Positions 3,873 through 31,200 of a stretch of DNA of 64,000 bases are shown here, one piece after another (within the stretch, counting starts at the first letter, position 1; the number at the start of each line of letters is the position of its first letter). The position numbers and the translations under genes were made by a program. Where the stretch lies: the NCBI GenBank assembly GCA_050117845.1, contig JASFLY010000003.1:124949-188948 (forward strand), in the 5' to 3' direction. This stretch comes from Candidatus Zixiibacteriota bacterium. GTDB taxonomy: Bacteria; RBG-13-66-14; B26-G2; WVWN01. Below the pieces are notes generated by a model. That model searched no databases, was not told the origin of the DNA, and was given only the letters and a program-made list of their open reading frames with translations.

Positions 3873-6236
3873 ATGACGGGTAACGGCCTTCGCGTCCTTA
3901 TCGGATGGAAGGAGATCGCGAACTACCTGGGTTGTTCTACCTCGACGGCGGTACGCCGCGTGGACGACGGCCTACCGGTCTTCCGCGTGGGGGGAAGCGT
4001 CCGGGCCTTCGTCGACGACATCGACCGCTGGCTAGAGGGTGAACGTATCCGGAAGTTGGAGGAGCCGCCCAAGGCCGAGACCGATTACCCGGGGATCGTG
4101 GTCAACCGCGAAGAGCTCGGCGACACCATGGCCTCCTTCGCCCGCGAAAGGAAAGACGAACGCTTCGCCGTAATCCCACTGGGAATCGATACCTCCAAAT
4201 ACGAAAACATAGAACTTCGGCTGAAAACGGCCGAAGAAAAGTACCGTTGGTTGTTGGAGACTGTCCCGGTTTGGATTTGGGAAACGAACGCCGACGGAGA
4301 ATATACGTATTCCAACGTCGCTATAAGGGACATACTCGGATACCGGCCGGAAGAGCTCGCCGGTTTCAAACCGGTGGAATTCCTCGTCGCGCCGGCCGAC
4401 GTCGAGATACACAAAAACGAGACCGATAACCTCCGGCAGAATAAAAGAGTTATCCGTGACTTCCAATGTCGCTACATCCACCGGGACACCTCGATCAAAT
4501 GGTTGGAGACGGACGCCGAGCCGATTTTCGAGAGCGGTGGGGAGTTCTCCGGCATCCGGGGCGTCAGCCGCGATATCACCGTACGGAAGAGAGTCGAGGC
4601 CGCGCTCCGGCAAAGCGAGGGCCAGTATCGGACCTTGTCGGAAAACATCCCGGTAGGCGTATTCCGTATGGCCGCGGATCCCACGGGCCGTATCATATCG
4701 GCGAACCCGGCGTTGGCCCGCATGTTCGGGTTCGACAGGCCGGAGGACATGGTGGGCGAACGTATCGCCGATTTCTACGCTGACCCAACACGCCGTTCCG
4801 GGTTCGTCGGGGCCGTCGCCGTTAAGGGCGAGATTACGAACTTCGAGGCGCGCCTCAAACGCCGCGACGGGAGCGAGTTTTGCGGGTCGTTCTCGGCCCG
4901 GGTCGGCCGCGGCGAGGACGACGCCATCGTCCATTACGACGGCGTTTGCGAAGACGTCACGGAACGCCGCCGGGTCGAAACGGCCCTGCGCAAAAGCGAG
5001 CACGAAAAAACAGTTATCCTGGAAAGCATGGCGGAGCTGGTCGTCTACGTAGGCCGCAATCTCGAAATTATATGGGTGAACCAGGCCGCCGCCCGTTGGG
5101 CCGGGGCCGCCCCCGAGGACATGGTGGGCCGGCCGTGTTTCGAGGCTTGGTACGAGAGAAGCGAGATGTGTGCGGAATGCCACGTTAAGCGGGCCATAGA
5201 AACGGGCGAACCCCAGGAATTGGAGCTGACCACCGCCGACGGCAGCATCTGGCACGTACAATGCAATCCCGTACGGGACGAGGAGGACGGTATCTGCGGA
5301 GCGGTGGAGGTATCGCTGGACATCACCGAGCGCAAACGGGCCGAAGAGGCACTACGCGAAACGTTAACGAAAAACGACGCCCTCCTGGAAGCCATCCCCG
5401 ATTTGATGTTCATTCTCAAGCGCGACGGAACATGCGTCGATTTCAAGCGCGGCCCGGCTGAACTATTCGCCCTGCCGCCGGATCAATTAATAGGCGCGAA
5501 TATCCGGGATATCGGCTTTTCCCAAGCCGACGAACGGCGGGCCTTCGAGGCGATTGAGGAAACGATACGAACCGGCAAGACCAGCGTCATCGAGTACGAG
5601 CTCCCCATACCCGGCGGTCTGAAGACGTTCGAAGCCCGTCTGGCCAAACTCGACGACGACCGAGTCATATCCGTCGTGCGAGATATAACGGAAATAAAAA
5701 AAGCGGAACGGGCCCGGGCCGAACTCGTTTTCGAGAAGGCCGCCGCCGCCATCTCCCGGGAATTCATCCGCGCCCGGAATATGGACGAAGCAGTGGAAGC
5801 TTCGCTCGAGATAATGGTCAACTTCAACGGGGCCGGCCGCTCATACTTGCTTACTTTATCGGAGGACGGCAAGGAAATAACTAACACCTACGAGCGCCTG
5901 TCCCCCGGCGTAGGGCCACGACCAGAGGAATTACGCCGGGTTCCAACCGATCCGTACGTATGGGGCACGGCGCAACTCCGTCAGGGCGAACCTCTAAGTA
6001 TTTCCGACGTCCGGGCCCTGCCCCATGAAGCCGCAGCGGAGAAGAAAACCCTCGAGGAACTCGGCGTCAAGGCCGTTTTGGTATTGCCGTTGTTCACCGA
6101 AAAAGATGAGCTCCGCGGTTTCGTCGGTTTCGATAATTGCACCGCGCCCGGCGATTGGAAAGAAGTCGACCTTGATCTGCTCCGATATTTCGCCGAGACT
6201 TGGCAATACGCCGTAAGCCGTAACCTTTTCGAATAA
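3873..6236 (+). CDS. one-component regulator: N-terminal excisionase/MerR-like HTH + multiple PAS domains + C-terminal GAF-like domain
   Basis: N-terminus LIGWKEIANYLGCSTSTAVRRVDDGLPVFRVGGSVRAFVDDIDRWL matches HTH_17/excisionase-type DNA-binding domains; at least four PAS units separated by DITVRKR/DVTERRR/DITERKRAEEAL/DITEIKKAE linker helices; one PAS carries CFEAWYERSEMCAECH; no kinase domain. Confidence 0.8.
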   Translation: MTGNGLRVLIGWKEIANYLGCSTSTAVRRVDDGLPVFRVGGSVRAFVDDIDRWLEGERIRKLEEPPKAETDYPGIVVNREELGDTMASFARERKDERFAVIPLGIDTSKYENIELRLKTAEEKYRWLLETVPVWIWETNADGEYTYSNVAIRDILGYRPEELAGFKPVEFLVAPADVEIHKNETDNLRQNKRVIRDFQCRYIHRDTSIKWLETDAEPIFESGGEFSGIRGVSRDITVRKRVEAALRQSEGQYRTLSENIPVGVFRMAADPTGRIISANPALARMFGFDRPEDMVGERIADFYADPTRRSGFVGAVAVKGEITNFEARLKRRDGSEFCGSFSARVGRGEDDAIVHYDGVCEDVTERRRVETALRKSEHEKTVILESMAELVVYVGRNLEIIWVNQAAARWAGAAPEDMVGRPCFEAWYERSEMCAECHVKRAIETGEPQELELTTADGSIWHVQCNPVRDEEDGICGAVEVSLDITERKRAEEALRETLTKNDALLEAIPDLMFILKRDGTCVDFKRGPAELFALPPDQLIGANIRDIGFSQADERRAFEAIEETIRTGKTSVIEYELPIPGGLKTFEARLAKLDDDRVISVVRDITEIKKAERARAELVFEKAAAAISREFIRARNMDEAVEASLEIMVNFNGAGRSYLLTLSEDGKEITNTYERLSPGVGPRPEELRRVPTDPYVWGTAQLRQGEPLSISDVRALPHEAAAEKKTLEELGVKAVLVLPLFTEKDELRGFVGFDNCTAPGDWKEVDLDLLRYFAETWQYAVSRNLFE

Positions 6237-6302: not shown

Positions 6303-6630
6303 ACGATAAACGGCAAAATAGCATTAAATGAGTAATTTACTTAACATATATGATAAATTTTGAGTGAATTCGACAGGTTTTGACGAAAGCAGGACGATTT
6401 TACTCCGCTATATATATAATGGAATCAGTATTGGAACGTCGTTTATTACTGGGCCGCCCTAAAAGTCAACTATAGTCGGCCCAACTGTACCCCCCCCAAA
6501 GTAGTCCGCTCTTTAACCGTTCCCTAATGATTTCGAAGCCCCGGCGCAATGCCAGCCGGGTATCCCTTACGCCGTCGTGCCTACCGGCCGTCGGACAACC
6601 GATTAGTAATAACGCACAGGAGGATCGAGT

Positions 6631-7002
6631 ATGGCCAAATCCCGTTCTGAAACGCTAAGGAGCATCCTGAAAGACTTGGAGGCCGCGACACCCGATATCG
6701 AGGGGAGTTGCGTTGTGTCCTCCGACGGCCTGGTAATGGCCAGCGCCCTGCCGGCCGATGTCGACGAGGACCGGGTAGCCGCGATGGCGGCCGCCTTGTT
6801 GGCCCTCGGCGACCGAAGCGCGACGGAGTTGGACCGCGGCGAGTTGAGCGAGGTTTTCGTCAAAGGTGAACACGGTTATATCGTATTGATGGGCGCGGGG
6901 CGGGAAGCCGTACTGGGAGCGCTTTGTCGGGAAGACGCGAAACTGGGCATGATATTCCTCGATATGCGTCGCGCCTCCAAAGAAATCGGCGACCTGGTTT
7001 AA
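6631..7002 (+). CDS. Roadblock/LC7 domain protein (paralog A)
   Basis: AGGAGG RBS; 123 aa; near-identical to paralog at 8805-9176; pattern GSCVVSSDGLVMAS...GYIVLMGAGREAVLGALC fits Roadblock/LC7 (MglB/CvnB-like). Confidence 0.75.
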   Translation: MAKSRSETLRSILKDLEAATPDIEGSCVVSSDGLVMASALPADVDEDRVAAMAAALLALGDRSATELDRGELSEVFVKGEHGYIVLMGAGREAVLGALCREDAKLGMIFLDMRRASKEIGDLV

Positions 7003-7077: not shown

Positions 7078-7563
7078 TTGGACGCACGAGGATATAATTC
7101 ACTACTTAACGTGACGATGTACGGTTTTGGGGCGGCCCTCAACAACCTGGTCGACCTCAACATGGTTCGTCTCGTCATCCGCCAGTTCGGAGACGCCCTG
7201 GTGGATTCCGAATTCGGCCCTAAATTCCTGAAAGGCATCGGATTCGAAGAACCAAAGGGTGACGACGTGCCTTCGCTGACTAAAGCGTACGCCGAGGAAA
7301 TGAAGAAATCCGGCATTACCCAGGTGTTCGACGTAGTCGAGGCCACGGACGAGAAACTCGTCCTGGATATCGGCATGTGCGTTTTCGCCTCCGCCACCGC
7401 GGCATTCAGGGCCGAAGGTATCGAAATTCCGCCCTGCCCCATCGTCGGGATCGTCCTGGCCGGCCTGAACAAACGGCTTAAGGTCAACGGCAAGGTAGCT
7501 TCGGCCGAATATAAATCGCAAGCCAATACGACGCTCTTCACTATCGACCTTTACGGCCGGTAA
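7078..7563 (+). CDS. hypothetical protein
   Basis: GAAAGGAG RBS 6 nt before TTG start; 161 aa; no confident domain; conserved Cys pair (MCVFASATAAF...PPCP). Confidence 0.5.
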   Translation: MDARGYNSLLNVTMYGFGAALNNLVDLNMVRLVIRQFGDALVDSEFGPKFLKGIGFEEPKGDDVPSLTKAYAEEMKKSGITQVFDVVEATDEKLVLDIGMCVFASATAAFRAEGIEIPPCPIVGIVLAGLNKRLKVNGKVASAEYKSQANTTLFTIDLYGR

Positions 7564-7700: not shown

Positions 7701-7835
7701 ATGGCGAATGAGAAATCCGATTGTAAATGGGCCCAGGGCGACCCCGACCCGACGGGCCTCTTCTGGTGCGATAAAATGGCGTGCATGGTCAACGGTAAAG
7801 AGAAACCGACCTGCACCCATTACGAGAAGGACTAA
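7701..7835 (+). CDS. small Cys-rich peptide, tandem copy 1 (44 aa)
   Basis: AAAGGAG RBS; MANEKSDCKWAQGDPDPTGLFWCDKMACMVNGKEKPTCTHYEKD; shares DCKW...WCDK...C.HY motif with the two following small ORFs. Confidence 0.45.
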   Translation: MANEKSDCKWAQGDPDPTGLFWCDKMACMVNGKEKPTCTHYEKD

Positions 7836-7910
7836 CGTCTAATTAAGGTTCCTAAGGCAATTAACCAATCCCAATCAACCGCGAAGCCCCCAGATTACGA
7901 GGAGTGAAGC

Positions 7911-8045
7911 ATGGCAAATTCGAAATCAGATTGCAAGTGGGCGCAGGGCGACCCGGATCCTACCGGCCTATTCTGGTGCGATAAACTGGGCCGTATGGTC
8001 AACGGCGAAGAAAAGCCGGTCTGCGAACACTACAGTTCCGAATAA
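7911..8045 (+). CDS. small Cys-rich peptide, tandem copy 2 (44 aa)
   Basis: GAGGAG RBS; MANSKSDCKWAQGDPDPTGLFWCDKLGRMVNGEEKPVCEHYSSE; below the ORF-track size cutoff, read directly from the sequence. Confidence 0.45.
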   Translation: MANSKSDCKWAQGDPDPTGLFWCDKLGRMVNGEEKPVCEHYSSE

Positions 8046-8101
8046 CGCAATCTAACACCCCTCTCGTCAGGGCAAGCTTCAAGGGCAAAGGACGTGGGAC
8101 G

Positions 8102-8227
8102 ATGAGTAAGGGAGACTGTAAGTACGCTGGCGAACCTAATGAATTGGGTCATACATGGTGCGACAAAATGGAGCGCTATGTACCCCCAAAGGACGAAGAA
8201 AACTGTGAGTTGTATGAACCCAAGTAA
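8102..8227 (+). CDS. small Cys-rich peptide, tandem copy 3 (41 aa)
   Basis: MSKGDCKYAGEPNELGHTWCDKMERYVPPKDEENCELYEPK; same CK(W/Y)A...WCDK...C.(H/L)Y motif, more diverged. Confidence 0.4.
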   Translation: MSKGDCKYAGEPNELGHTWCDKMERYVPPKDEENCELYEPK

Positions 8228-8804
8228 GTAAAGGCACCTCCTTTACTTAACGGCCGGCGGCGTAATAATACCTCCGTCAGGTATTATGGTACGCGTCGCC
8301 GGTTTATCTATTCCACGGCGTGAACGCCGGCCAACCGCACGGGAATAGTTGTTTCACCTATTGGGTTGTAATATACTAGAGCGCCGTTGAATTTATTTAT
8401 AGCCTCACGGCATACTACCCTATTATATTTACCCATACACCACGAGAAAAGAACTAACAACGAGCTAGTATTACATTTACTTGACTCGTACCGCATTTAG
8501 CTGTTATAATTTAATTCCCGCCCCCGAAAACCGGGACGTTATCCGTGGTAGATGATGACGAAATATGACTTATTTTGAACACGGCAACGGTCACAGGGCC
8601 TGTTATATATAATGAGAGGGGATTATTGACACTGTACGGATAACGTCGCGGTTAACGGGACATTCCCGTTTAGAATGCGAACGACTCTTACATGAAATCC
8701 ATTCCGAATCTTTAACGGTAACGTCGGTGAACCCGGCGGGGAATCATAATAACCGTTTCGGGTGAGCCGAACCAAACGAACTCTTAAGTAAAGGAGGTTG
8801 GATT

Positions 8805-9176
8805 ATGGCGAAGTCCCGCGCAGATACGCTCAGGGACATTTTAAAAGACCTCGAGGCTGCGACCCCCGATATCGAAGGGAGTGTCGTCGTCTCGGCCGAC
8901 GGCCTGGTAATGGCCAGCGCGCTTCCGTCGGACGTCGACGAAGACCGCGTAGCGGCCATGGCCGCCGCGCTGCTGGCCCTGGGAGACCGGAGTTCCACGG
9001 AACTCGACCGGGGCGACTTGAGTGAAGTTTTCGTAAAGGGCGAGAAGGGTTACATCGTCCTGATGGGCGCCGGCCGCGAAGCGGTACTCGGCGCTTTGTG
9101 CCGCGAAGACGCCAAATTGGGTATGATTTTCCTTGATATGCGTCGGGCGGCGAAAGACGTTGAATCGGTAGTATAG
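8805..9176 (+). CDS. Roadblock/LC7 domain protein (paralog B)
   Basis: AAAGGAGG RBS; 123 aa; ~85% aa identity to 6631-7002. Confidence 0.75.
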   Translation: MAKSRADTLRDILKDLEAATPDIEGSVVVSADGLVMASALPSDVDEDRVAAMAAALLALGDRSSTELDRGDLSEVFVKGEKGYIVLMGAGREAVLGALCREDAKLGMIFLDMRRAAKDVESVV

Positions 9177-9300
9177 CGTCTTATGCCGGAGATTGGCGGA
9201 TCCCCGGTAACGATTGACGAATTTCCCGGGTCCCCGAAAAGAAAGCTAAAACAGACAACCCCGGGACCAATGAGAGATAAGCTAAGGAGGTGCCTTATTA

Positions 9301-17978: not shown

Positions 17979-20900
17979 CTATTCTATCGGGAATTTTTCC
18001 TCCGGACTTATACCGTACTTTTTCATTTTGTACCTTAAGTTCGTTTCGGAAATCTCCAATTTACGGGCCGCGGCCGCTTTCACCCACCTCGCCTCCTCGA
18101 GCGCCTCGAGAATCATCTCGCGCTCCAGGTTGGCCAGAGACTCGTTCAGCGAGGAACTGCTCGTGCTACGGCCCGGCCTTCCCATTTTCCTCAGGTTAAC
18201 CGGGAGGGCATCGGGCTCGATAACGCGGCTCGACGTGGCCGTAAGGGCGTACCGTACGCAGTTTTCCAGTTCCCGCACGTTTCCGGGCCATTCGTACGCC
18301 GTCATTATCGCTACGGCCTCCGGTGAGAACCGGGGCCTGTCTTTCGCCTTCCCCTGGTAATATGTGGTCACGAAATGATTCAGGAGTTCCGGAATGTCCT
18401 CCCGGTGTTCCCGTAAAGGCGGACAACCGATAAGGAAGACGTTCAGACGGTAGAACAAGTCTTCCCGGAACTTGCCGCTGGCGATGGCCTCCGGCAAGTC
18501 GGCGTTGGTCGCGCTTACGACGCGGGCCTTCAACGGGATGGTTTGATGCGTGCGACTGCCGAGCCGGACGAACCTTTTCTCCTGGAGGACGCGGAGCAGC
18601 TTGGACTGGGTATTCATATCCATGGCCGCGACCTCATCCAGGAAGATAGTCCCGTCGCCGGCGCGTTCGAAGAGGCCGATCCTCTTGTCGACGCCGGTCG
18701 CCGTCCCCTTTTCGATCCCGAACAACTCGCTCTCCAGAAGCGCCTCCGGGATGGCCGCGCAGTTCACGCCGATGAACGGCGCGTCCGCGTTAGGGCTGAG
18801 CGTGTGGACCGTTCGGACGACGAGTTCCTTGCCGGTGCCCGACTCCCCGACGACGAGAACGTCGACGTTGGCCTGGGCCGCCGAAGCGACGGCGCCCCGC
18901 AATTCCTCCATGACCTGAGACGAACCGACGAGCAGGGGTTTGGCCGCTTCCTCCCGCGGCGCGATGCTTATGGTGGCGAAACTCTCCTCCGAGCGGCGAC
19001 GGCGCCGTTCGATTTCGTAGGCCGCGGCGCGCGCGAAGACCTGGGCGAAATTCAGGTCCTCCTCCGCGAAAAGGCTCTCGCGCTGAAGGCTGTCGAGGTA
19101 GACGACGCCCTGGAAGGCCCCGTCCCCCCCGGCGAGGGGGATACATATCAACGAACGGATTCCGTGGAGCTGGACGCTGGCGCTGTCCTTGAAACGGAAG
19201 TCCTCGGCGGCGTTGGGGCTGAACACGGCCTTCTTGGATTCGGCGACGTGGCCGATAATCGTCTTGCTTATAACGGACGCATCCTCGATGGTGGAGTCGT
19301 CGACGCCGGCGGTTCCCTTAATCCGCAGGACGTTGTTGTGCTCGTCCAGGAGGAAAATCACGCCGCGGTCGGCCTCCAGCCTTTCGGCCAGATACGACAG
19401 TATAAACTTCAGAAGATCGTCGAGGTCGGGCTGGTCGGACAGTTCCTTCAACCCGTCGGCCAGTTCCGCGAGTTTCTTCTCGCCTTCGTCGCTGTTGCGT
19501 TCCGCCATAAACAAGTTCCCTTCCAACTCGAATATTTTTACGCGGTACTTATTCACGCCAATCTCGCCGAATAGAGTCTTGGCCTTTTCGAGGTCGTTCC
19601 GCGCCTGCCTTATTATATCAACGTCTCCGGCCCCGCGTAAAGCCTTTAACTTCAATTCGGCTCGCGCCATGTAGCAGCGCCCGAGGAAATACTTGCTGCT
19701 CAGCGCCGTAAAAGTGGAGAGTGCCTGGTCGAGGTACGCTTCCCCGAGGTCGGCGTCGCCTCGTGCTCCCGAGAGCTCCCCCCGGGTAAGCAAAACCTTC
19801 GCGTGTTCCAATTTGTCCCCGGAGTCTTCCAGGTTCTTAAGACAGCGCGCCAATTCCTCCTCGGCCTCTTCGTAACGGCCGGCCAGGAATAGCACCCGGC
19901 CACGGAGGGAACGGGTATCGTCGACCTCCGTCCGGGCCCCTCGCTCCGTGAACGACTCCTCCGAACGTTTCAGGTGTTCCAACGCCTCGTCTAGTTCGCC
20001 GTTCTCGGCCGCGATTAGCGCCCGATAATAACTAGCGTACCCGGGGATCGCCCCGGCCAGGGACTCCTCGGCGTCCAACTCGTCCAGGTAGAACTCGGCC
20101 CGGCGGTACTCTCCGGCGCGTATCATGTTCGCCGCGGACCCGACGTAAATCGACGCCAGGAGTTCCGGATTGTCGATAAGTTTGCACTCCGCCTCGGCGG
20201 CCTCGAATTCCCGGGCGGCCCGTTTCACGTATCCCTGGTTGTGATATATCCGGGCCAGCCGGATGAGGGACGCGACCAGGGCGTAGCGGTCGTGGGCCCT
20301 CTTGGCCAGCTCGATGCTGCGCCGGGTCGCGTCTTCGGCCCGTTCCACGTCCGCCCTCCACAGCAGAACCTCGCCGGTCAGATTCAACGCGATGGAAGCC
20401 AGCCGGGGCTTGCCGGCCTCCTCGGCCAGTCGGGCCGTTTCGGCGAACGCGGCCAACGCGGCGTCGGCGTCGCCGGCGTAATAGGATATCGCGCCCTTGA
20501 CGTAATTCACGTACGCCACGAGGTCGGGACGGTCCACCGCCGCGGCCAATGCCTCCGCGTCTCGCGCCAGCGTTATCGCCCGGTCGAAATCCCGGTTGCG
20601 GAAGTAGGTCCAGGCCAGCAAGGCCTGTCGCAGAAACCTATCCCCCGCTTCCAACTCGTCGGGCGGGAGACCGTCCAGGTCCCGGGCCGGCGCTTCGAAG
20701 TCACCCAACACCAAACGTTCCCGCGAGAGTTGCAGCAGCGCTTTTCCGTAGCCGACCTGGCCGGGCTTCCGGCACCGCACCAGGGCGTCGTAGTAGCCGA
20801 GGGCCGAGGCGTGGTCCCCCATGGCGGAATAAGCCTCCGCCAAATCGGTGACCGCGTCCTCGTACGCCTCGCTGTACCAGTTGCCCTCGGTCGTCAGAGC

Positions 20901-22958
20901 CGCCTCCAGGAGTTCGACCGCGCGTTCGAAATCGTTCGTCCGGGCGGCGGCCCGGCCCGCCTCGAGGAGAGGGCCCCGGGCCTTGCGGCTCGACCCCATG
21001 CGGAGGTAGGCCCGGCCCTTCGCCTCCAGCGAATCGACGTCGCGGACGCCGTTTCGGTCCAGGAAGGCCACGACGCCGGCCGAGGCTTCCTCCAGATACT
21101 CCTCCCGAGCCCACTCCAGAACGTACTCCCTCACGGCGGCGTTCGCGAAGGAATACCCGGCGTCAGGCGTCTCCTCCTTGCTAATGACGCCCGCCTCCAC
21201 CAACCGGCCCAAGACGCCCCCGTCCTTAACCAACTCGCCCGGGAAATAATAGCCGTACGCCGCGGCCAGCGCCAGCGATTCCTTCTCGTTCTCCCCCAGG
21301 CGCTCGATAACGCCGACCAGATAGTCGTCCGGCGCCGGGCAGACGGTCGCGGTTTTCAGGCTGCCGTAATCGACGTGCCACCCGTCCAATCGGCGTATAA
21401 CCGTCTTCTCCGCGATAAGATGTTCTATAGTGCGGCGGAGGACGCCGGGGTTCCCTCGCGCCAGCCGCTTGACGTGGCGGGATAAAGCCGGGTCCACCTT
21501 GGGCACGCCGAGGGCGTATTCCAGATAACGCTCCGTCGTTTCTTCCGAGAAACCCTTTAATTCGAACTTCTTTACCGTTAACAACCCTTGCGGGCCGGCC
21601 AGGATTTTTTTCGTAAAGGCGCCGCCGGGCCGAGCGAGCGCGATTACGAACTTCACCCGGCCCCGGAACGGATAGTTCACGAGGCGCGTTACCGATTTCG
21701 CCGTTCCTCCGTCCTCCGCGTCGACGTTGTCGAGAGCCAGGACGGTCACGTCGTACTTCCCCGACGAGTCGTTCAGACTGCGGAGGACGTCGGCCTCGCC
21801 GGCGACGTCGTACGCCGGGGCCCCCATCAGGGCGGCCTCCAGCGAGCGCGAAATGCCGGTACCGTCGTAAGCCTCCGGGAAAGCGGCGCGGACGCGGACA
21901 CCGAGAACGCGACGCAACGCCCGTAATACGCCCTCGCCGGCGCCGCAGTCGACGTATAAAAAGGAACCCCGCTTTAACTGAGCGACCCGGCCTACTTCGC
22001 GCAAAAACGCCGTCTTCCCGACGCCCGCCGAACCCTCCACGATGAAGACCTCCGGCCCCTGATTATCGCCGGAAGGACGGAAAACGTCCGTCACCTCTTT
22101 CTCGTAACCGAAGAAACGGCCGGTCGCGAGGTCCGTTTCTATGCGCATCGTTTCGGGAAGAGGGATATCCTGAGCCCGGGCGAGTTCGGCCAGTTTCGTT
22201 ATGGCTTCGTACGCGGACGCGAACCGGTCCGCCGGATTGTGCTGGACCAACCGCGACGCGAAAACGTCCAATTCCGGGTAAACGTCCGGGGCGACCTCGC
22301 GCAAGCGTACGTAGTCGTACCTCGGCTTACGTTTGACCCGGGATATATCGTCGCCGGGCATGAACGGCAAGCGGCTTGTGATAACCCGGAAGAACAGGAT
22401 GCCGAACGAGTAAAGGTCGGACCGGGGATCGTCCATGACCCCCTGGAAGACCTCCGGCGCTATGTACTCCATGGTACCGGAGACGGGATAGCGGTCCTCA
22501 CCCTCGACCTGGCGGACAAGGCCGAAATCCCCCAGGATGAAGCGGCGCCGATCTTCAGCTTTGGCCTCGAAAACGTTACCCGGTTTCACGTCGCCGTGGA
22601 TTATGCCGCGCCGGTGGACGTAGTCGAGGGCGGACAATAGCTGCAGGGAGAAGTCGAAGAGGTATGGGAGGTTAATGTCCGGGCCGGCCTGGTCGAAGCG
22701 CCACCCGGCGTAATAATCCATCGTATAATAAATGAAATCCTGTTCTTCGCCGAAATCGTAAACGCGTACGATATTGGGATGGTCGAGGTACGTGAGGGTT
22801 TCGAACTCCCGTCTGAGAAGCTCGATGGGCCTTGCCCGGGATTTATCGACGGTTTTAATGGCGACGACCTTTTCCCGGCTACGGTCGAAGGCTTTTACCA
22901 CTTCCGACGTAGGAGTGCGGGCAATTTGTTCTATTATGTCGAACCTGTCGTCGAGCAT
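17979..22958 (-). CDS. multidomain regulator: Ser/Thr protein kinase-like + STAND/NACHT-type P-loop ATPase + TPR + GAF + sigma-54 interaction AAA+ domain + Fis-type HTH
   Basis: Kinase motifs VAIK, HGDVKPGN, DFG, APE (Gly-rich loop absent); Walker A VEGSAGVGKT; long TPR-like helical region; GAF (RGVIFLLD...GVVYLDS); EBP domain VLVVGESGTGKE, ESELFG, GAFTGA-variant GTATGV, C-terminal HTH. Confidence 0.85.
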   Translation of the reverse strand: MLDDRFDIIEQIARTPTSEVVKAFDRSREKVVAIKTVDKSRARPIELLRREFETLTYLDHPNIVRVYDFGEEQDFIYYTMDYYAGWRFDQAGPDINLPYLFDFSLQLLSALDYVHRRGIIHGDVKPGNVFEAKAEDRRRFILGDFGLVRQVEGEDRYPVSGTMEYIAPEVFQGVMDDPRSDLYSFGILFFRVITSRLPFMPGDDISRVKRKPRYDYVRLREVAPDVYPELDVFASRLVQHNPADRFASAYEAITKLAELARAQDIPLPETMRIETDLATGRFFGYEKEVTDVFRPSGDNQGPEVFIVEGSAGVGKTAFLREVGRVAQLKRGSFLYVDCGAGEGVLRALRRVLGVRVRAAFPEAYDGTGISRSLEAALMGAPAYDVAGEADVLRSLNDSSGKYDVTVLALDNVDAEDGGTAKSVTRLVNYPFRGRVKFVIALARPGGAFTKKILAGPQGLLTVKKFELKGFSEETTERYLEYALGVPKVDPALSRHVKRLARGNPGVLRRTIEHLIAEKTVIRRLDGWHVDYGSLKTATVCPAPDDYLVGVIERLGENEKESLALAAAYGYYFPGELVKDGGVLGRLVEAGVISKEETPDAGYSFANAAVREYVLEWAREEYLEEASAGVVAFLDRNGVRDVDSLEAKGRAYLRMGSSRKARGPLLEAGRAAARTNDFERAVELLEAALTTEGNWYSEAYEDAVTDLAEAYSAMGDHASALGYYDALVRCRKPGQVGYGKALLQLSRERLVLGDFEAPARDLDGLPPDELEAGDRFLRQALLAWTYFRNRDFDRAITLARDAEALAAAVDRPDLVAYVNYVKGAISYYAGDADAALAAFAETARLAEEAGKPRLASIALNLTGEVLLWRADVERAEDATRRSIELAKRAHDRYALVASLIRLARIYHNQGYVKRAAREFEAAEAECKLIDNPELLASIYVGSAANMIRAGEYRRAEFYLDELDAEESLAGAIPGYASYYRALIAAENGELDEALEHLKRSEESFTERGARTEVDDTRSLRGRVLFLAGRYEEAEEELARCLKNLEDSGDKLEHAKVLLTRGELSGARGDADLGEAYLDQALSTFTALSSKYFLGRCYMARAELKLKALRGAGDVDIIRQARNDLEKAKTLFGEIGVNKYRVKIFELEGNLFMAERNSDEGEKKLAELADGLKELSDQPDLDDLLKFILSYLAERLEADRGVIFLLDEHNNVLRIKGTAGVDDSTIEDASVISKTIIGHVAESKKAVFSPNAAEDFRFKDSASVQLHGIRSLICIPLAGGDGAFQGVVYLDSLQRESLFAEEDLNFAQVFARAAAYEIERRRRRSEESFATISIAPREEAAKPLLVGSSQVMEELRGAVASAAQANVDVLVVGESGTGKELVVRTVHTLSPNADAPFIGVNCAAIPEALLESELFGIEKGTATGVDKRIGLFERAGDGTIFLDEVAAMDMNTQSKLLRVLQEKRFVRLGSRTHQTIPLKARVVSATNADLPEAIASGKFREDLFYRLNVFLIGCPPLREHREDIPELLNHFVTTYYQGKAKDRPRFSPEAVAIMTAYEWPGNVRELENCVRYALTATSSRVIEPDALPVNLRKMGRPGRSTSSSSLNESLANLEREMILEALEEARWVKAAAARKLEISETNLRYKMKKYGISPEEKFPIE

Positions 22959-23836: not shown

Positions 23837-24829
23837 ATGTCCGTAAAGCGTGCGGAACGGCTCTTTCATATGATAAGTATATTAAGGACGGGACGGGGAT
23901 ATACCGGGGCCGAGTTGGCCGACGTCATGGGCGTTTCCCAACGGACGGTTTACCGAGACGTCGTCGACCTGTCGGGACTGGTGCCCATATATTACGACGA
24001 CGGGTACCGGCTCCTGTCCGATACTTTCCTGGCCAACCTCACTTTCACGCGCGAAGAATTGGTGGCCCTCAAGCTGGGCGTACAGATGCAGGCGCTGGCC
24101 GAAGCCTCTCACCTCGGCGCCGCGACCCAATCCGTCCTCGCGAAAATCGACGAACAGCTGGAACGCCGGTTCCAGGGCGAGGCGGACGACGGCGACGTAA
24201 TATCGGTCCACGTGAAGGCTCACCCGATGGGAGAGAAGACGGTGCGGGTCCTACGAGACCTGGAGGACGCGGTACGGCGCCGCCTGACCGTCGAATTCTC
24301 CTATTACACGCTCAGCCGAAACGAGAAGACCAAACGGACGGTCGACCCGTACGGCCTGACGTTCCGACGCCATAGCTGGTACCTGGTGGGCTATTGCCAC
24401 CTTCGCCACCAGGCGCGCGTATTCCGTCTCGATCGGATCTCCTCCGTTGCGGCCACGTCACACAAATTCGAACGGCCCAAGGACTTTTCGCTGGAAGAGT
24501 TCTTCGCCGATACCTGGGAGGTATTCGCCTCCGGCCCTCTGGCCGACGTCGCGTTGCGCTTTTCCCGGCACGCGGAATTCATCGCCCGGCCCACGCTGGG
24601 AGGCCGCGGCGAGTTCAACCTTGAACGAAAAAGCAATAAAATAGTATTTCGCGGAGAAGTCCCTGTAACGGACGAATTCGTACGTTGGCTTCTGACGCTT
24701 GGAGAGAACGTCGAGGTCCTCGAGCCGGCCGAACTCCGCGACAGGGTAGCTTCCCGCCATCGCTCCGCAGCCGAACTCTACGAGCCTATCGTCGCGGAGG
24801 CGGGTTCGCGAGGGATAAACACCGGGTAG
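23837..24829 (+). CDS. WYL-domain transcriptional regulator (HTH + WYL)
   Basis: AAAAGGACGG RBS; N-terminal HTH (YTGAELADVMGVSQRTVYRDV); WYL signature HSWYLVGYCHLRHQARVFRLDRI. Confidence 0.8.
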   Translation: MSVKRAERLFHMISILRTGRGYTGAELADVMGVSQRTVYRDVVDLSGLVPIYYDDGYRLLSDTFLANLTFTREELVALKLGVQMQALAEASHLGAATQSVLAKIDEQLERRFQGEADDGDVISVHVKAHPMGEKTVRVLRDLEDAVRRRLTVEFSYYTLSRNEKTKRTVDPYGLTFRRHSWYLVGYCHLRHQARVFRLDRISSVAATSHKFERPKDFSLEEFFADTWEVFASGPLADVALRFSRHAEFIARPTLGGRGEFNLERKSNKIVFRGEVPVTDEFVRWLLTLGENVEVLEPAELRDRVASRHRSAAELYEPIVAEAGSRGINTG

Positions 24830-24966: not shown

Positions 24967-25185
24967 GTTATCGATATTGTCCGTTTCCCTTCCGTTTTCC
25001 AAACCCTTACTAACGTCAAAGGCTTGTCCGAAGCCGTTACCAGGGCCGCCCCGTCGGCGTTCCACCGTACGACCGGGCGGACCGTATTGTAGCGCCGTTC
25101 CCCGAAAGCGGAACGGGCCGGCGAATAGGGCGGACGTAAGTCGCGCCCGACAATTTAAGATAGAAATTTGACAAGCGTAATGGGG

Positions 25186-25212
25186 GCCCGGGGATTACGG
25201 TCCGGGCTTTTT
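25186..25212 (+). promoter_or_regulatory. terminator/attenuator-like hairpin in the 5' leader of the RT-sensor gene
   Basis: GCCCGG-N10-CCGGGC + TTTTT ending 3 nt before the GAGGAGG RBS (25216-25222) and ATG 25231; a third CCCGGG at 25224-25229 allows alternative pairing over the RBS; TTGACA hexamer at 25168-25173. Confidence 0.4.
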
Positions 25213-25230
25213 CCCGAGGAGGTCCCGGGA

Positions 25231-28200
25231 ATGGACTTTTGTTCGGCGGACGACCTGGCGGCGGCGTGGCCCTACGCCCGTCGGGATGCCGCGGACAATT
25301 TCGTCTTCGACGTTATCGATTATGAAGACGTCAAACATAACCTGCCGCATATAATCCGGCGGCTCGAGCGCGAACTCCGGACGGACCAGTATAAACCGGC
25401 CCCCCTTCTGTCCGTCGATATACCGAAAAGGCCCTACACCATCCGCCCGGGCGCAGTCGTCTCTTTAATCGATTTAATCGTACTTTACGCCCTGGTCAGG
25501 AAAATAGCGCCGGCCCTCGACGCGAAATTATCGCCCGGCGTATTCTCCTACCGTTGGGTCCCCGAGGGAAAAAAGCCCAAGTGGTCCATCTTCTCGGAAT
25601 CGACCCAGGACGAATGCGGCATCGACGAAATCCTCCCCGCCGCGCCGTTCGCTCCGTACCCTCCTTTCGACGAGGCCGCGCCGGCGGGATGGTTCCGGGG
25701 GTGGATAGAATATCACGAGCGCGCGAAAGATTCCGCCGCCCGCTATAATTATTGCGCCGTCGGCGACGTTACAGCCTATTTCGAAAACGTCGCCGTGACG
25801 TCGCTCTTCAACCGTATAGGGGACCTCCTCGGCCCGGAGCACTCGGAAGCCCTCACCCGCCTCCGCCGCTTCTACGAGTATTGGGCCTGGCATCCAGCCG
25901 GTACGACCACGCGCGGCGAAGTCCTCCCCCAGGGCAACGATATATCGCTCTTCCTCTCGAATTTCTATCTGACGAAACTCGACGAGGCCATGGCGGCCGA
26001 AGTCCAGAACGACCCCCGCCGGTACTTTCGCTACGTCGACGACATCTGCGTCTTCACCGATACCCAGGAGCAGGCCCACCACTCCCTCCTCACCGGCGAC
26101 CGGGTGCTGCGCGATCTGGGGCTGAACCTTAATACGGAGAAGACCGGGATCGTTCCCACATCCCGCCTCTTCGACCGGGACGTGGAGCGCTGGCTCGAGG
26201 ACATGTCGCCCGTTACGGCCAACGCCGCCGAGAACGCCCGTGACTTCTTTAAGAACCGCTTCGACGCCGACGACGTCGAGAAGTGGGAACGCGCTTACCT
26301 GCGGGCCTTAACGACTCTCCAAAGAGCCGGCGACTGTTCGGTCGCCCCCGCCGCCCTTCAGGTTTTCCTGGAGAACCCCACGTACAAACTGCTGGTTAAA
26401 AATTTCGATTACCTTAGCTTCTTCGCGGAGCGTTTCCGATTCGGCGACGACGTCGCCCGCCGGATCACCGAGGGAACGTTCAACTTTCCATTCCACAAAC
26501 ACTACCTTTACCGCCTGGCTGCTTACTGCCGGCAGAACTCCCCTTCTCTCCGCGAGCAAGCTCTGGAAGAAGCCCGCGGCGACGCCGAATGGTACGTCCG
26601 AATCGCCGCGTTATACTGCCTGAACACGTTCAACCTTTCGCCCGACGAACTCGACGCCGTCGAGGAACTGGCGGGCAGCGAGGCCCACCCGCAAGTGGCC
26701 CGCGCCGCGCTCGTCGTTTTGCGACAACGGCCGGCCGACGAGGTCGCCTCGGCCGAGGATCATTTCCTCTTTACCACCGCGCCCGGCCAGGAGAACCTAC
26801 GCGAATATTTCTTCCGCCTCACGACCGAAGAGGAATTGGCGCGTGCCGTCCTCGAGCGGATCCGGAACCAGGAGGTGGCCTCGCGCGCTTTCCTGAACCG
26901 CCTCCACCAACTGGACCTCCTCAAGGGCAATCCCGCCGTCCGCGAGGAATACGGCCGGATCCTCGAACAAAAGATAGACGAATGCGACCCGGCCTGGACC
27001 CGCCTCTATAGCCGCCTCCGGCGCATCGCCGAACTGGCGTCGGTAAGTGCGTTGCGCGTTCGAAAAGCGCGCAAAATCGCCCGGGCGCAAGGCCACCTTC
27101 AAACCCTGCTGCGAAGCTCGCGCGAGGCCGTCCTTATAACCGGCCCGGGAGGAGACGTCCAGGTCTGGAACGACGCCGTGAACAAACTCCTCGGTTACGG
27201 CCGCCGCGAGGTCCGCGGGAAAGACGTGACCGACATCTTGCCTTCCCCCGGCGGCTTCGCGTCCGCGGACGAACTCACGGCATACGTCGCCGAGAACGGC
27301 GGATGGCTCGTCGAGGAGGCAACCCTTTACGAGCGGCCGGACGGCGCGCTGATTGACATTTCCACCACCTATTCCGTTATCACGGATCCCATTACGGGCG
27401 AGCCGGTCGGCCTCCTTATCCTTGTACGCGACGCGACCGCCGAAGTACGGGCCGCCCGCATCGAACAGGTACAAATCGCCACCGAACAAACCCTGGCCGA
27501 CGCCACGGTCCGGCTTGTCTCGCCGGAAGACCTGGACGCCGCCATTGAGCACACCCTGCGAGAGACGGCGGACGTGCTGAACGCGCAACGGGCCACCGTT
27601 TTCCGTTTCAGGGAAGGAACACTCGTCCTCGATGTAACCCACGAATGGTGCGCGCCCGGCGTCCCTTCGACCCGCGACTCCGGAGGAAAACTGGACCTCG
27701 GCGAACTCCCGGACGTCCGCGAGCGCTTGCATTCCGAGCGCGTCCTTTCGATATCGAACCTCTCCACTCCCAGCGCCGGGAGTCAACGGGTGATGAAGGA
27801 ACGGGGTGTCAAAGCGGCCCTCGTCGTCCCGTTCTATATTTCCGACGAGATGACCGGCCTAATAGCGTGCACCGATACGACCCGGCCTCGCGACTGGGCG
27901 TACGGCGAGGCCAATCTCCTCTTCGCCGTAACGGCGCTTATCTCGAAAGCTCTGGCGCGCCGGGAAGCGGAGGAGGAAAAGCTGGTGAGCGAGGTCCGCT
28001 ACCGGGCCGTCGTCGAAGACCAAACGGAGCTGATATGCAGATGGCGGCCCGACGGGACCCTTACCTTCGTTAACGAGGCTTACGGCCGGTATTTCGGGAA
28101 ATCGCCCGGCGAACTGGTGGGCCGGAGTTTCATCCATTTTATCTCGGAGGAGGATCGCGAAACCGTCGAGGCCGAATTCGCGTCTCTGGGTCCGGACAAA

Positions 28201-31200
28201 CCATCCTCGACGCATGAACATCGCGTTACGACGCCGGCCGGTGAAGTCCGTTGGCAGCAATGGACCAACCGCGTCATCATTGACGAGCACGGCGCAATAT
28301 CGGAATACCAATCCGTAGGCCGCGACATTACGGAGCGCAAACTCGCCGAGGAAGCCCTCGACTTCGAGCGCCGCCAACTCTTGTCGATCTACGATAGCGT
28401 CGAGGAAGTCGTTTACGTCGCCGACCCCCGGACCCACGAAATCATATACGCCAACGAGTACTTGAAATCGCTGTACGGAAAAGACATGGTAGGCGGCGTA
28501 TGTTACCGGGAATTCCAGGGGCTGGAGGCCCCCTGCGATTTCTGCACGAACGGAATAATACTCGAACAAAAAGGCAAGGCGTACCGTTGGGAATTCCACA
28601 ACGAAATACTAGACAAGTCCTTCCTGTGCACCGACCGGATAATTAAATGGCCCGACGGCCGGGACGCCCGGATCGAAATCGCCATAGACATCAGCGACCG
28701 CAAAACCGCCGAAGAAGCTCTGCGGAAGAGCGAAGAGGAATTCCGCGCGCTCGCGGAGCAGTCCCTCCAGGGAGTTACCCTCGCGACGGAGGATCGGACC
28801 ATCTTCGCTAATCGGGCTTTTTACAACATCACCGGCTACGAGCCGGACGAGATAATCGGCCTGACGCCGGGCGAAGTCGCCACCCTAATCATCCGGCCGG
28901 AGGACAGGGAAACCGTTAAAAAGAACTTCCGGCGCCGCATGGACGGAGAAAGCGCTCCTTCGCCGTACGCCGTGGGAATACTCCATAAGAACGGCTCCAC
29001 CCGGTGGGCCGAGTTATACTGCACGATCGTCGATATCGGAGGGCCGCCGGCGAATCTTACCACGCTCGTCGACATAACCGAACGGAAGCGGGCCGAGGAA
29101 GCGATCAGGGAAAGCGAGGTCAAGTACCGAACGTTGTTCGAGAACTCGCCGGACGCTCTTACGATACTCGACACCCGCGCGGTCATTAGCGACCTGAACC
29201 GGGCGACCGAAGAACTAACGGGGTACTCGCGGGAAGAGCTACTGGGGCGGCCCTTCGTAGAAATCCCGTCACTACGGGCCCAAAAACGGGCCCGCCTGCG
29301 GAAACTGCATTCCGACCTCGTCGCGGGCCGTGAGGCCGAACCGTACGAATTGGAAATCGTACGACGGGACGGGACCCGTCGATGGGTAAACGTTACGGTC
29401 GCCGCAATTAAAAAAGGGTCGGACCTTATAGGAACGCAGCTGATAGGCCGCGACGTTACCGAACGCAAACTCGCCGAAGAGAAGATAAAACGCCGTTTGG
29501 AATTTGAGGGCGTAGTCGCCCGCATCTCGTCGCGCCTCGTGGCTCCGGCGGACGTCGACCGGGCCGTAAACGAATCGTTGGCCGATATAGGCCGGTTCCT
29601 CGGAGCCGGCCGAGTACCACTATTCCTATTGAGCCGGGACGGCAGCGAGATGTCCATCAGCCACGAGTGGTGCGCCGCCGGCGTAAAAAGCCTGATCGGA
29701 GAGCTGCAAGGGGAGCCCACGTCGGGAATCCCGTGGTGGACGGACCGACTCGGCGGGGGGGAAGTGCTGCACATACCGGACGTATCGCGAATGCCGCCGG
29801 AAGCCGCCCCGGAACAGAAAATCCTGGAGGGACAGGGGATTAAATCCATCCTCGTATTGCCCGTCGAGATCGGCGGGAGTTTCAGCGGCTTCGTCGCGTT
29901 AGACAACGTCGAGGGAACCGGCGGCTGGGACGTGGACGACGTGGAACTCCTCCGCGTTATGGCCGCGGACCTCGGCCGGGCCTTCGAACGACAACGAGCG
30001 GAAAGCATCCTCCGGGAAAACGAGGAACGTTACCGCGACCTGGTGGAAGGTTCCCATGATCTCGTCCAAAGCGTCGCCCCCGACGCCCGCTTCCTATTCG
30101 TCAACCGGGCCTGGCTCAGGACGATGGGCTACGCCGAAAGCGAACTTCCGAACCTCACCCTTTTCGACGTTATTCATCCGGACTACGTCGGGCACTGCCA
30201 GGAATTGTTCCAGCATGTTATGCGCGGCGAAACCGTTAGCGATATCTCGGTCAAGTTCGTGACGAAGGACGGCCGCGAAATCATCCTCGACGGCACGGCG
30301 GGGCCGCGTTTCATGAACGGCGAAGTCGTGAGCACGCAGGGTTTCTTCCACGACGTAACCGAGCGTAAACGCGCCGAAGAAAAACTCAAGCGCCATAGCG
30401 AAGAAATAGCCGCCGTCAGCGAACTGGCCATAGAACTCGCCGGCGTCGATACGAGTGAAGAGATGTTCCCCCTTATCGCCCGCCGCCTCCGGGAGCTTAC
30501 CGGCGCTTTGGCCGTCCTGACGACGTCTTACGACTACGAGGCCGATGAATTGGCCGTCAACGCCGTCGAAGCCGACGTTAGCACCCTGGACAAAACGAAC
30601 GATATCCTGGGCGCGGAGCTTTCGACGATACGCTTCCCGTTTCCGATATATTCCCGCGAAGCCCTGGCTTCCGAACACGTCGCCGTAACGACGGGCATCC
30701 CCCACCAGGCCCACGCCGTCATTCCGAAAAACGCGTGCCGAGTAATCGAGGAAGCCTTCGGCATCGGCGACGTTTACATTTTAACGTTCCACTTCGGCGG
30801 GGACATGATCGGCGCTGCCGGCATTATTATGCAGCGAGAGACTACCCGGCCTTCCGTCGATACGCTGGAGGCCGCGGCCAACACGATCGCCACCACCCTC
30901 CGGTCCAAACTCGCGGAGGAAGCCCTGGTCGCCAGCGAGCGCGAGAAGACGACCATACTCGAATGCGTGGACGATATGGTCGTTTTCTGTAATTCGGAAA
31001 TGGAAACGGTCTGGGCCAATCCCGCCGCGGCCGCGTGGCACGACATGACGCCCGAAGAAATGGTAGGCCGCCGTTGCTACGAAGAACGCTACGGCCGGAC
31101 CGATCCCTGCGAGGACTGCGCGGAAGTCGAAGCGCTGAGAACCGGCGAACCCCGGGAAATCGAAACCACGTCCCCCGACGGCCGGTCATGGTACAACCGA

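Follow-up and report, generated by a model that had tools for sequence, protein, structure and literature searches.

The present analysis deals with a 64,000-nt stretch of DNA (in the following called the window) that is part of a 209-kb contig from a metagenome-assembled genome (MAG) of Candidatus Zixiibacteriota, the genes of which carry PVH29_ locus tags. Three consecutive small genes of this window, pep1, pep2 and pep3, encode members of a rare and previously undescribed family of Cys-rich microproteins. It is virtually certain that this is a real protein family. In bacteria as well as in Asgard archaea the microprotein gene follows a gene for a second undescribed protein (in the following called the partner), and it is likely that the microprotein is the functional partner of this protein encoded upstream. 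Taking all observations together, we slightly favour the view that the microprotein binds a metal, docks on a partner with a V4R/Bet3-like fold, and thereby feeds signals into, or regulates, a Roadblock-GTPase switch as one of its subunits.

The three open reading frames (ORFs) of 41 to 44 codons had been pointed out in a preliminary description, which was made from the letters of the DNA, and they were found again at the same places on the plus strand (Table 1). Their translations are MANEKSDCKWAQGDPDPTGLFWCDKMACMVNGKEKPTCTHYEKD for pep1, MANSKSDCKWAQGDPDPTGLFWCDKLGRMVNGEEKPVCEHYSSE for pep2 and MSKGDCKYAGEPNELGHTWCDKMERYVPPKDEENCELYEPK for pep3. As had also been claimed, each ORF possesses its own putative ribosome-binding site, because Shine-Dalgarno-like motifs can be read from the sequence before all three starts (GGAG 11 nt 5' of pep1, GAGGAG 6 nt 5' of pep2, and AAGGA 9 nt 5' of pep3). 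The nucleotide identity of about 80% given for the first two copies is slightly too high; two alignments of these clearly similar genes returned 75% over 135 nt and 78% over 123 nt. The view that the ORFs had been missed by gene calling applies to pep3 in the NCBI record, whereas pep1 (MGD8717860) and pep2 (MGD8717861) appear there as hypothetical proteins, and in JGI/IMG all three are annotated; a family name is given by no database.

Several lines of evidence indicate that these ORFs are coding. Between pep1 and pep2, 20 of the 34 nucleotide differences are situated at codon position 3, and the differing codons comprise 14 synonymous and 10 non-synonymous ones. The DNA that flanks the two genes is unrelated (43-50% identity). 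The similarity is thus bounded by the reading frames and biased to third positions, hence the repeat is coding and does not represent a mere DNA repeat. A similar pattern was observed with the orthologues from a related bacterial locus (L005). For pep3, 15 of the differing codons are synonymous and 4 are non-synonymous, and third positions account for 19 of the 22 nucleotide differences; the corresponding codon numbers are 13 and 7 for pep2, and 14 and 12 for pep1. The ordered triple of 44, 44 and 41/42 amino acids occurs both in L005 and in L030, which is another locus of this MAG, and the 90%-identity clusters that hold the peptides (29 and 18 members) consist entirely of frame-intact sequences with conservative substitutions. 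The frames are therefore kept in homologous loci and change mostly synonymously, which refutes the non-coding repeat that the preliminary description had considered as the way in which it could fail. Judged from these substitution patterns, the three ORFs are protein-coding paralogues under purifying selection. That they are non-genes, i.e. chance ORFs or parts of a tandem repeat that does not code for protein, has a practically negligible probability; the ORFs are indeed short and pep3 has been left out by NCBI, but besides the third-position bias, the synonymous excess among paralogues and orthologues, and the unrelated flanks, there are protein homologues with 40-55% identity in both bacteria and archaea and in-frame fusions to GNAT domains. 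The spacer between pep2 and pep3 (8046-8101) is 78% conserved in comparison to L005 9136-9192, while the pep1-pep2 spacer is conserved to 54%; going by this difference, the former may harbor an RNA or translation-control element.

The distribution of the microprotein family was analyzed on a large scale. Among 5.8 billion clustered proteins, 31 family clusters were recovered with a profile, and when 1.84 billion representatives were scanned exhaustively with HMMER, no more than 35 matched at E <= 1e-3. The named members belong to Zixibacteria and to Asgard archaea (Thor-, Prometh-, Frey- and Hermodarchaeota), with the Asgard archaea as the main group. At the DNA level, the degenerate pattern DCKYAG-x5-G-x2-WC was detected at 15 loci among the GTDB species representatives, 12 of them titled Thor-, Prometh- or Hermodarchaeota and 3 titled only "uncultured archaeon". 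The motif search in related genomes, which had been proposed as a check, has consequently recovered the family in Zixibacteria-like bacteria and Asgard archaea. Uncalled family genes are present in public Asgard contigs (L023 3935-4063; L025/L026 4481-4606), hence the family is under-annotated. The sharing of both families, microprotein and partner, by Zixibacteria and several Asgard phyla suggests, judged from the distribution, that genes may have been transferred between the two domains.

An alignment of 28 diverse members revealed D7, C8, G19, C23, C38 and Y41 as invariant and S6, K9, A11, G13, W22, K25 and V30 as near-invariant residues, resulting in the family signature S-D-C-K-[YW]-A-(x)-G-x5-G-x2-W-C-x-K-x4-V-x7-C-x2-Y. 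The invariant Cys are regularly spaced with 14 residues between each of them. An optional fourth Cys is found at three different positions among the relatives, namely as N-terminal CxxC (e.g. P0087, P0089 and P0097), as C-x-C (L014 and L027), or as C-terminal C-x-S-C (L020 and L022). The conserved His/Glu that had been suggested as additional ligands did not stand up in the wider family, because the His is confined to the type-A copies. Two types of paralogues can be distinguished, and the ordered set A-A-B is kept in at least three Zixibacterial loci.

A hint at function comes from gene order. When both families were mapped with local hidden Markov models (HMMs) on all loci examined, the peptide gene was located directly 3' of the partner gene and on the same strand for 30 out of 30 partner genes, which correspond to 24 distinct sequences. 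The gap between both genes ranges from -4 to +24 nt in 23 of the 24 distinct cases with frequent overlaps, the window being the exception. The reverse test gave the same picture, since the loci L025-L029, which were fetched via the partner alone, all contain the peptide, including the uncalled copy of L025/L026 at 4481-4606. Five Thorarchaeota loci display the order peptide-partner-peptide. In the bacterial locus L028 (6001-6626; GCA_040961635.1) the partner and one 45-aa peptide stand on their own between ATP-synthase and DksA/bactofilin genes, and neither Roadblock nor GTPase genes were found within 6 kb of the pair. The pair alone in L028 indicates that the two genes form the core unit. In this regard, the statement that the three peptide genes lie between two paralogous Roadblock/LC7 genes needs an addition; both Roadblock genes are present, and between Roadblock 1 and pep1 there is also the 161-aa partner gene, which turns out to be the key neighbor. 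Because the two genes are so closely coupled in bacteria as well as in archaea, the microprotein is regarded as a probable small subunit of the partner.

Further evidence is provided by gene fusions. The peptide unit of about 38 residues also forms the C-terminus of eight representative proteins (156-475 aa), where it follows a GNAT acetyltransferase domain that is sometimes preceded by HEAT repeats. Among the four fusion loci in Table 1, three are titled Promethearchaeota and L014 is titled "uncultured archaeon". The fusions are situated 1.3-3.9 kb from free peptide-partner pairs, inside or beside the same GTPase gene clusters. The GNAT fusions therefore characterize the peptide unit as an autonomous, reusable folded domain and not as a processed peptide; as read from these sequences, it would most simply be a docking or metal-binding module. 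They also bear on the possibility that the three genes are precursors of ribosomally synthesized and post-translationally modified peptides (RiPPs) or of bacteriocin type. Tandem, small, Cys-rich paralogous ORFs would fit such a role, and an asparagine-synthase-like gene is found about 30 kb away. However, genes for radical-SAM, YcaO or lanthipeptide maturases, peptidases or ABC exporters are absent from the neighborhood in the window and in 24 other loci, the conservation extends along the whole 38-44 residues instead of being split into leader and core, the predicted fold is compact, and the domain occurs inside cytoplasmic GNAT enzymes, so that RiPP or bacteriocin-type precursors are very improbable. 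Among the interpretations offered in the preliminary description, the precursor peptides can thus be abandoned, while small metal-binding proteins and ligands of a GTPase module fit the three invariant Cys, the Asp and the synteny as far as these can be read from sequence.

The partner family comprises 57 clusters, all of them from Zixibacteria-like bacteria or Asgard archaea, and the protein of the window is 31-35% identical to the proteins encoded directly 5' of the Asgard peptide genes. The residues N11, G55, C101, T107, R111, P118, P119, C120, N150 and F154 are invariant, including a PPC120 motif. No sequence match to the partner was obtained in Pfam, NCBIfam or PDB. The AlphaFold2 (AF2) model of the partner (predicted local distance difference test, pLDDT, 88; predicted template modelling score, pTM, 0.83) shows the topology H-H-H-H-E-E-H-H-E-E, in which four N-terminal helices are predicted to pack against a 4-stranded sheet as a two-layer alpha/beta fold. 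Foldseek related this model with a probability of ~1.0 and template modelling (TM) scores of 0.55-0.60 to YslB, Bet3, TRAPPC3, Thor-TRAPPC3 7yh3, the phenol-sensor (V4R) domains of MopR, PoxR and DmpR, H-NOX and BcsD. Hence, the partner is modelled as a new family with V4R/Bet3-like fold and not as a member of V4R or TRAPPC3. A four-ligand zinc site has been reported for PoxR and Thor-TRAPPC3 (PMC10933270). The only invariant Cys of the partner are C101 and C120; some Thorarchaeota members retain a C-x8-C-E-F motif in their C-terminal hairpin, which the Zixibacteria have lost. One may speculate that the peptide stands in for canonical V4R zinc ligands that are missing from the partner of the Zixibacteria, although no alignment with V4R could be established at the sequence level. 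The partner homologue from Freyarchaeota (L023 3425-3910) bears an unconfirmed Pfam label that had been computed beforehand, PF27323 "RdxA_C", for which no literature was found; the partner family may thus already be touched by a model of a very recent release of Pfam.

The microproteins themselves also have no sequence match in Pfam or NCBIfam scans of the family or in a PDB search with the peptide profile. Structure prediction, which had also been proposed as a check, returned a confident and compact fold with a beta-hairpin (pLDDT 85.8). The three fixed Cys, the movable fourth Cys and the Asp next to the first Cys lead to the expectation of a single metal centre, and judged from these residues the presence of a metal site appears somewhat more probable than not. 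The metal would most likely be Zn2+ by analogy with the zinc appendages of acetyltransferases and the zinc-ribbon flavor of the fold matches; an Fe-S (iron-sulfur) cluster is a less likely alternative. The top Foldseek matches of the peptide model, all of them non-significant, are zinc ribbons such as those of PhnA, TFIIB and RPA. The peptide unit resembles zinc ribbons and zinc-finger appendages as a Cys-rich unit of about 40 aa with a beta-hairpin that is attached to GNAT enzymes, and some of the relatives have a CxxC knuckle at either end. It differs from them by three single invariant Cys plus the Asp instead of two CxxC knuckles; moreover, none of the Pfam zinc-ribbon models matches the peptides, and no fold match reaches significance. 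Two other known groups of small Cys proteins were considered and dropped. The HiPIP proteins have the spacing C-x2-C-x~16-C-x~13-C, which is resembled by the relatives with four Cys only; there is no Pfam ferredoxin or HiPIP match to the peptides at E <= 10, no match in the PDB sequence search, and no HiPIP among the fold matches. The C-terminal region of GcrA (PF07750) is the sole Pfam contact and concerns only pep2 (E = 0.044; 14.6 bits compared to a cutoff of 26.9 bits). Its motif C-x-W-x-x-G...F-x-C...C-x-H is similar to the peptides, but they have no GcrA DNA-binding domain, the score is below the Pfam gathering threshold, and the PDB sequence search was empty, so that the resemblance is taken as due to chance or as very remote.

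The conserved Cys permit two other explanations of the same genes. First, the peptides could be free-standing small metalloproteins, for example a mini Fe-S carrier, a metallochaperone or an acceptor of persulfide/sulfur, which are co-regulated with the partner but form no stable complex with it. The three invariant Cys are flanked by aromatic residues, a SufS-like cysteine desulfurase and a small ORF with four Cys are encoded in the same cluster of the window, and the best TM score among the non-significant Foldseek matches belongs to 2y8n_B, which is the small, Fe-S-carrying subunit of a glycyl-radical enzyme (TMq 0.56). We regard this explanation as unlikely, because the SufS-like gene is absent from all other loci examined, Pfam ferredoxin and HiPIP models do not match even at the relaxed threshold mentioned above, the strict and often overlapping adjacency to one partner at 24 distinct loci is more typical of complex subunits, and the GNAT fusions indicate a docking role. 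Second, the peptides could be metal-free thiol-switch or adaptor peptides with Cys that act as redox thiols, acylation sites or persulfidation sites and modulate the partner. S-acylation occurs on Bet3, and MsvR, a V4R regulator, is under thiol control. This explanation accounts equally well for the synteny, the number of invariant Cys is odd, and weak NCBIfam matches to the V4R of MsvR/MobR were found in the tandem V4R proteins encoded nearby. It is nevertheless quite unlikely, since the fourth Cys that moves among three positions and the invariant Asp beside the first Cys better suit a four-ligand metal site; the regular Cys spacing, the conserved Gly and aromatic residues, and the compact predicted domain also speak against it.

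Beyond its immediate partner, the microprotein is nearly always found within operons for Roadblock/LC7 proteins and small Ras-like GTPases, mostly in Asgard archaea, to which the Zixibacterial versions add PATAN and PAS sensors. In the window, two Robl_LC7 genes and one small_GTP/Arf/Ras gene were detected within 7.9 kb, i.e. a Roadblock-GTPase module. The second locus of the MAG (L030) is compact with the order Roadblock, partner, peptides of 44, 44 and 42 aa, Roadblock, GTPase and FHA-PATAN, and L005 is organized similarly. The Asgard order is partner, peptide, Roadblock, GTPase and then one to three Roadblock-like proteins, often with a PAS sensor or kinase in the vicinity. Wherever an Asgard locus offers enough sequence, the pair is flanked by genes for Roadblock and GTPase, and this also applies to both loci of the MAG. 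PAS sensors also adjoin the module in L003, L005, L024, L025 and L027, and the PATAN gene is located 5' of the GTPase gene in L005 and 3' of it in L030.

A possible mechanism can be sketched for a metal-binding microprotein that cooperates with the Roadblock-GTPase switch. Each microprotein would hold one metal centre formed by Cys8, Cys23, Cys38 and either Asp7 or an extra Cys, and would dock as small subunit on the V4R/Bet3-like partner. The resulting heteromer would provide, together with Roadblock, the input or regulatory platform for the GTPase, with the thiol/metal site possibly reporting the redox or metal state of the cell. The three Zixibacterial paralogues might give rise to alternative or mixed complexes. 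Several findings weigh against this picture. The spacer between the partner gene and pep1 in the window is 137 nt long, hence translational coupling is not applicable there. The GTPase gene of the window follows only 5.7 kb further downstream and has a promoter-like site of its own between it and the peptide genes. The partner is linked to V4R/Bet3 by predicted structure only, since hhalign compared it with the two V4R proteins of the window at a probability of just 0.4 and it has no match to Pfam V4R (PF02830) or Bet3. The two CxxC (or C/H) knuckles that together provide the four ligands of a classical zinc site were not seen across the peptide family. Finally, metal binding and the complex of peptide and partner are both argued from guilt by association.

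A more far-reaching and rather doubtful idea is that the microprotein and its partner are core subunits of an ancient GTPase-regulating complex composed of the Bet3-like protein, the microprotein, Roadblock and an Arf/Rab-like GTPase. Such a complex would correspond, in prokaryotes, to the guanine nucleotide exchange factor (GEF) platforms of the TRAPP/Ragulator type and might be gated by redox state or metal. Its operon would have been kept across several Asgard phyla and exchanged with Zixibacteria, and the metal-Cys3 microprotein would act as a switch for sensing or assembly.

Table 1. Positions of the genes and elements treated in the text. Coordinates refer to the window or, for the GNAT fusions, to the locus named.
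Locus	Position	Strand	Feature	Basis
Window	3873-6236	+	HTH-PAS x4-GAF sensor, upstream of the module	Pfam
Window	6631-7002	+	Roadblock/LC7 1, 123 aa	Pfam Robl_LC7 E = 2.7e-19
Window	7078-7563	+	Partner, 161 aa, undescribed family, predicted V4R/Bet3(TRAPPC3)/H-NOX-like fold	AF2 and Foldseek
Window	7701-7835	+	pep1, 44 aa, type-A Cys microprotein	ORF and translation; family HMM E = 7e-24
Window	7911-8045	+	pep2, 44 aa, type-A Cys microprotein, paralogue of pep1	ORF and translation
Window	8102-8227	+	pep3, 41 aa, type-B Cys microprotein, nearest to the Asgard type	Fits the DNA pattern DCKYAG-x5-G-xx-WC
Window	8481-8510	+	Sigma-70 promoter-like site TTGACT-18-TATAAT, TG-extended	11/12 consensus positions; consensus match only
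Window	8805-9176	+	Roadblock/LC7 2, 123 aa, paralogue of Roadblock 1	Pfam Robl_LC7 E = 1.2e-20; 78% nt identity to 6618-6917
Window	9301-9789	+	Cys protein, 162 aa, family unassigned	No Pfam match
Window	9808-10386	+	V4R protein, 192 aa	Pfam V4R E = 2.4e-10
Window	10388-10999	+	V4R protein, 203 aa, tandem	Pfam V4R E = 4.8e-08
Window	11001-12266	+	SufS-like class-V aminotransferase / cysteine desulfurase family protein	Pfam Aminotran_5 E = 4.9e-109; TIGR01979 sufS 366 bits, under the 475-bit cutoff
Window	12259-12462	+	67-aa ORF with four Cys (C5, C11, C33, C42), PVH29_03495, hypothetical	8-nt overlap with the SufS-like stop; conserved in a 5-member cluster, no Pfam match
Window	13110-13940	+	PATAN (DUF4388/PatA_N) protein	Pfam DUF4388 E = 9.6e-28
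Window	13956-14501	+	Small Ras/Arf/MglA-like GTPase, 181 aa	Pfam ATP_bind_1, Arf, Ras; TIGR00231 small_GTP 44.5 bits (cutoff 42.5 bits)
L009	3750-4667		GNAT (some with HEAT) and C-terminal Cys-microprotein domain	
L014	87-1124		GNAT (some with HEAT) and C-terminal Cys-microprotein domain	
L017	3984-5492		GNAT (some with HEAT) and C-terminal Cys-microprotein domain	
L021	3367-4281		GNAT (some with HEAT) and C-terminal Cys-microprotein domain	

The remaining genes of the cluster and some non-coding elements complete the picture of the window (Table 1). A 156-aa protein encoded between Roadblock and the partner in L005 was found as phmmer match to the query family of the 162-aa Cys protein, with 35% identity in the alignment. 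Two small ORFs are situated between the SufS-like and the PATAN genes. The spacer between pep3 and Roadblock 2 (8228-8804; 577 nt) is AT-rich with a GC content of 0.43-0.47 compared to 0.55-0.65 in the genes. Its promoter-like site would imply a leader of about 295 nt before Roadblock 2, and it contains a 24-nt inverted repeat (8523-8546 / 8636-8659); Rfam detected no structured RNA in the AT-rich spacers. Directly 3' of the pep3 stop, the element GCACCTCCTTTACTTAA (8224-8250) is anti-Shine-Dalgarno-like and can fold locally into a hairpin of 9 bp. It could also pair without mismatch with 15 nt in the ribosome-binding region of Roadblock 2 (8784-8798), and its complementarity to that of the gene for the 162-aa protein (9278-9296) is 89% over 19 nt. 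By its complementarity, this element could exert long-range translational control on a read-through transcript or could be the remnant of a duplicated ribosome-binding site. PADLOC found no matches, so that a defence-system or toxin role has no support from it.

Two other genes of the window are worth mentioning. The plus-strand ORF at 25168-34656 encodes 3162 aa with RVT_1 (residues 184-329, E = 3e-14), HEAT repeats, two GAF and more than a dozen PAS domains, an unusual reverse transcriptase fused to a giant sensor array, and is preceded by a gene for a WYL/WCX/HTH regulator (23837-24829, plus strand). On the minus strand (17979-22958), a 1659-aa protein combines, in this order, Ser/Thr kinase, AAA_16 (STAND-like), TPR, GAF, sigma-54 activator and HTH_8 domains.

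The significance of the two families is related to the proteins with which they are associated. Eukaryotic regulators of membrane traffic such as TRAPP and Ragulator are built from Roadblock/longin proteins, Bet3/V4R proteins and small GTPases. As described in PMC10933270, Bet3/V4R, Roadblock/longin and small GTPases cooperate in eukaryotic TRAPP and all are present in Asgard archaea, where the Bet3/V4R, Roadblock and Rab/Arf-like proteins have been characterized individually; according to the same paper, GTPase genes of MK-D1 do not, as a rule, share an operon with genes for RB or TRAPPC3. Because these genes are reported there as mostly non-operonic, partners are hard to assign in Asgard archaea. 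The conserved operon described here ties a protein of predicted Bet3/V4R fold, Roadblock, an Arf/Rab-like GTPase and the microprotein together and thus offers a four-protein set for reconstitution, of which the Zixibacterial version may be easier to express. Furthermore, a conserved microprotein family becomes visible that has no entry in Pfam, NCBIfam or PDB and the gene of which, only ~40 codons long, is missed by annotation in several retrieved records. If the peptide turned out to be a mere structural zinc knuckle, the outcome would be the modest annotation of a new family.

The cluster can be compared with several known systems. The TRAPP core consists of Bet3-family and longin-type subunits and acts as Rab GEF. 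The partner shares with it the predicted fold, including the match to 7yh3, and in Asgard archaea it is co-operonic with Roadblock-type and Arf/Rab-like GTPase genes, an arrangement that contrasts with the generally non-operonic genes of MK-D1 (PMC10933270). However, the partner has no sequence similarity to V4R/Bet3, and TRAPP contains no such microprotein subunit. An Asgard operon with Roadblock (LAMTOR1-like), Rab-like GTPase and DENN has been described in passages of bioRxiv 10.1101/2020.10.19.343400; it is similar to the Asgard loci found here (compare L001, L003 and L010-L022) in that Roadblock is followed by the small GTPase and more Roadblock/longin-like proteins. The downstream protein of ~220 aa in our loci has no Pfam match and is not identifiable as DENN, so that an overlap with that operon, as far as those passages describe it, is neither confirmed nor excluded. 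The main-text passages of PMC10933270 and bioRxiv 10.1101/2020.10.19.343400 that were considered do not mention the microprotein or the partner family with V4R/Bet3 fold. The actinobacterial conservon (CvnA-D), a small-GTPase module of the MglA/MglB type, differs from the window, because the HTH-PAS-GAF sensor has no HATPase/histidine kinase and no CvnC/DUF742 was detected in the window. A bacterial parallel in composition is provided by the MglA/MglB modules, for which the genomic association of Roadblock (MglB), the MglA-like GTPase and PATAN has been described (PMC4316618). The window cluster is similar to them in its two Roadblock/LC7 proteins, the Ras/Arf-like GTPase, PATAN and the PAS sensor; the published modules differ in having neither a protein of V4R/Bet3 fold nor a Cys microprotein, and the peptide-partner pair can occur without a GTPase. 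Collectively, the two linked undescribed families add to the Roadblock-small-GTPase switch, which as a type of system is already known.

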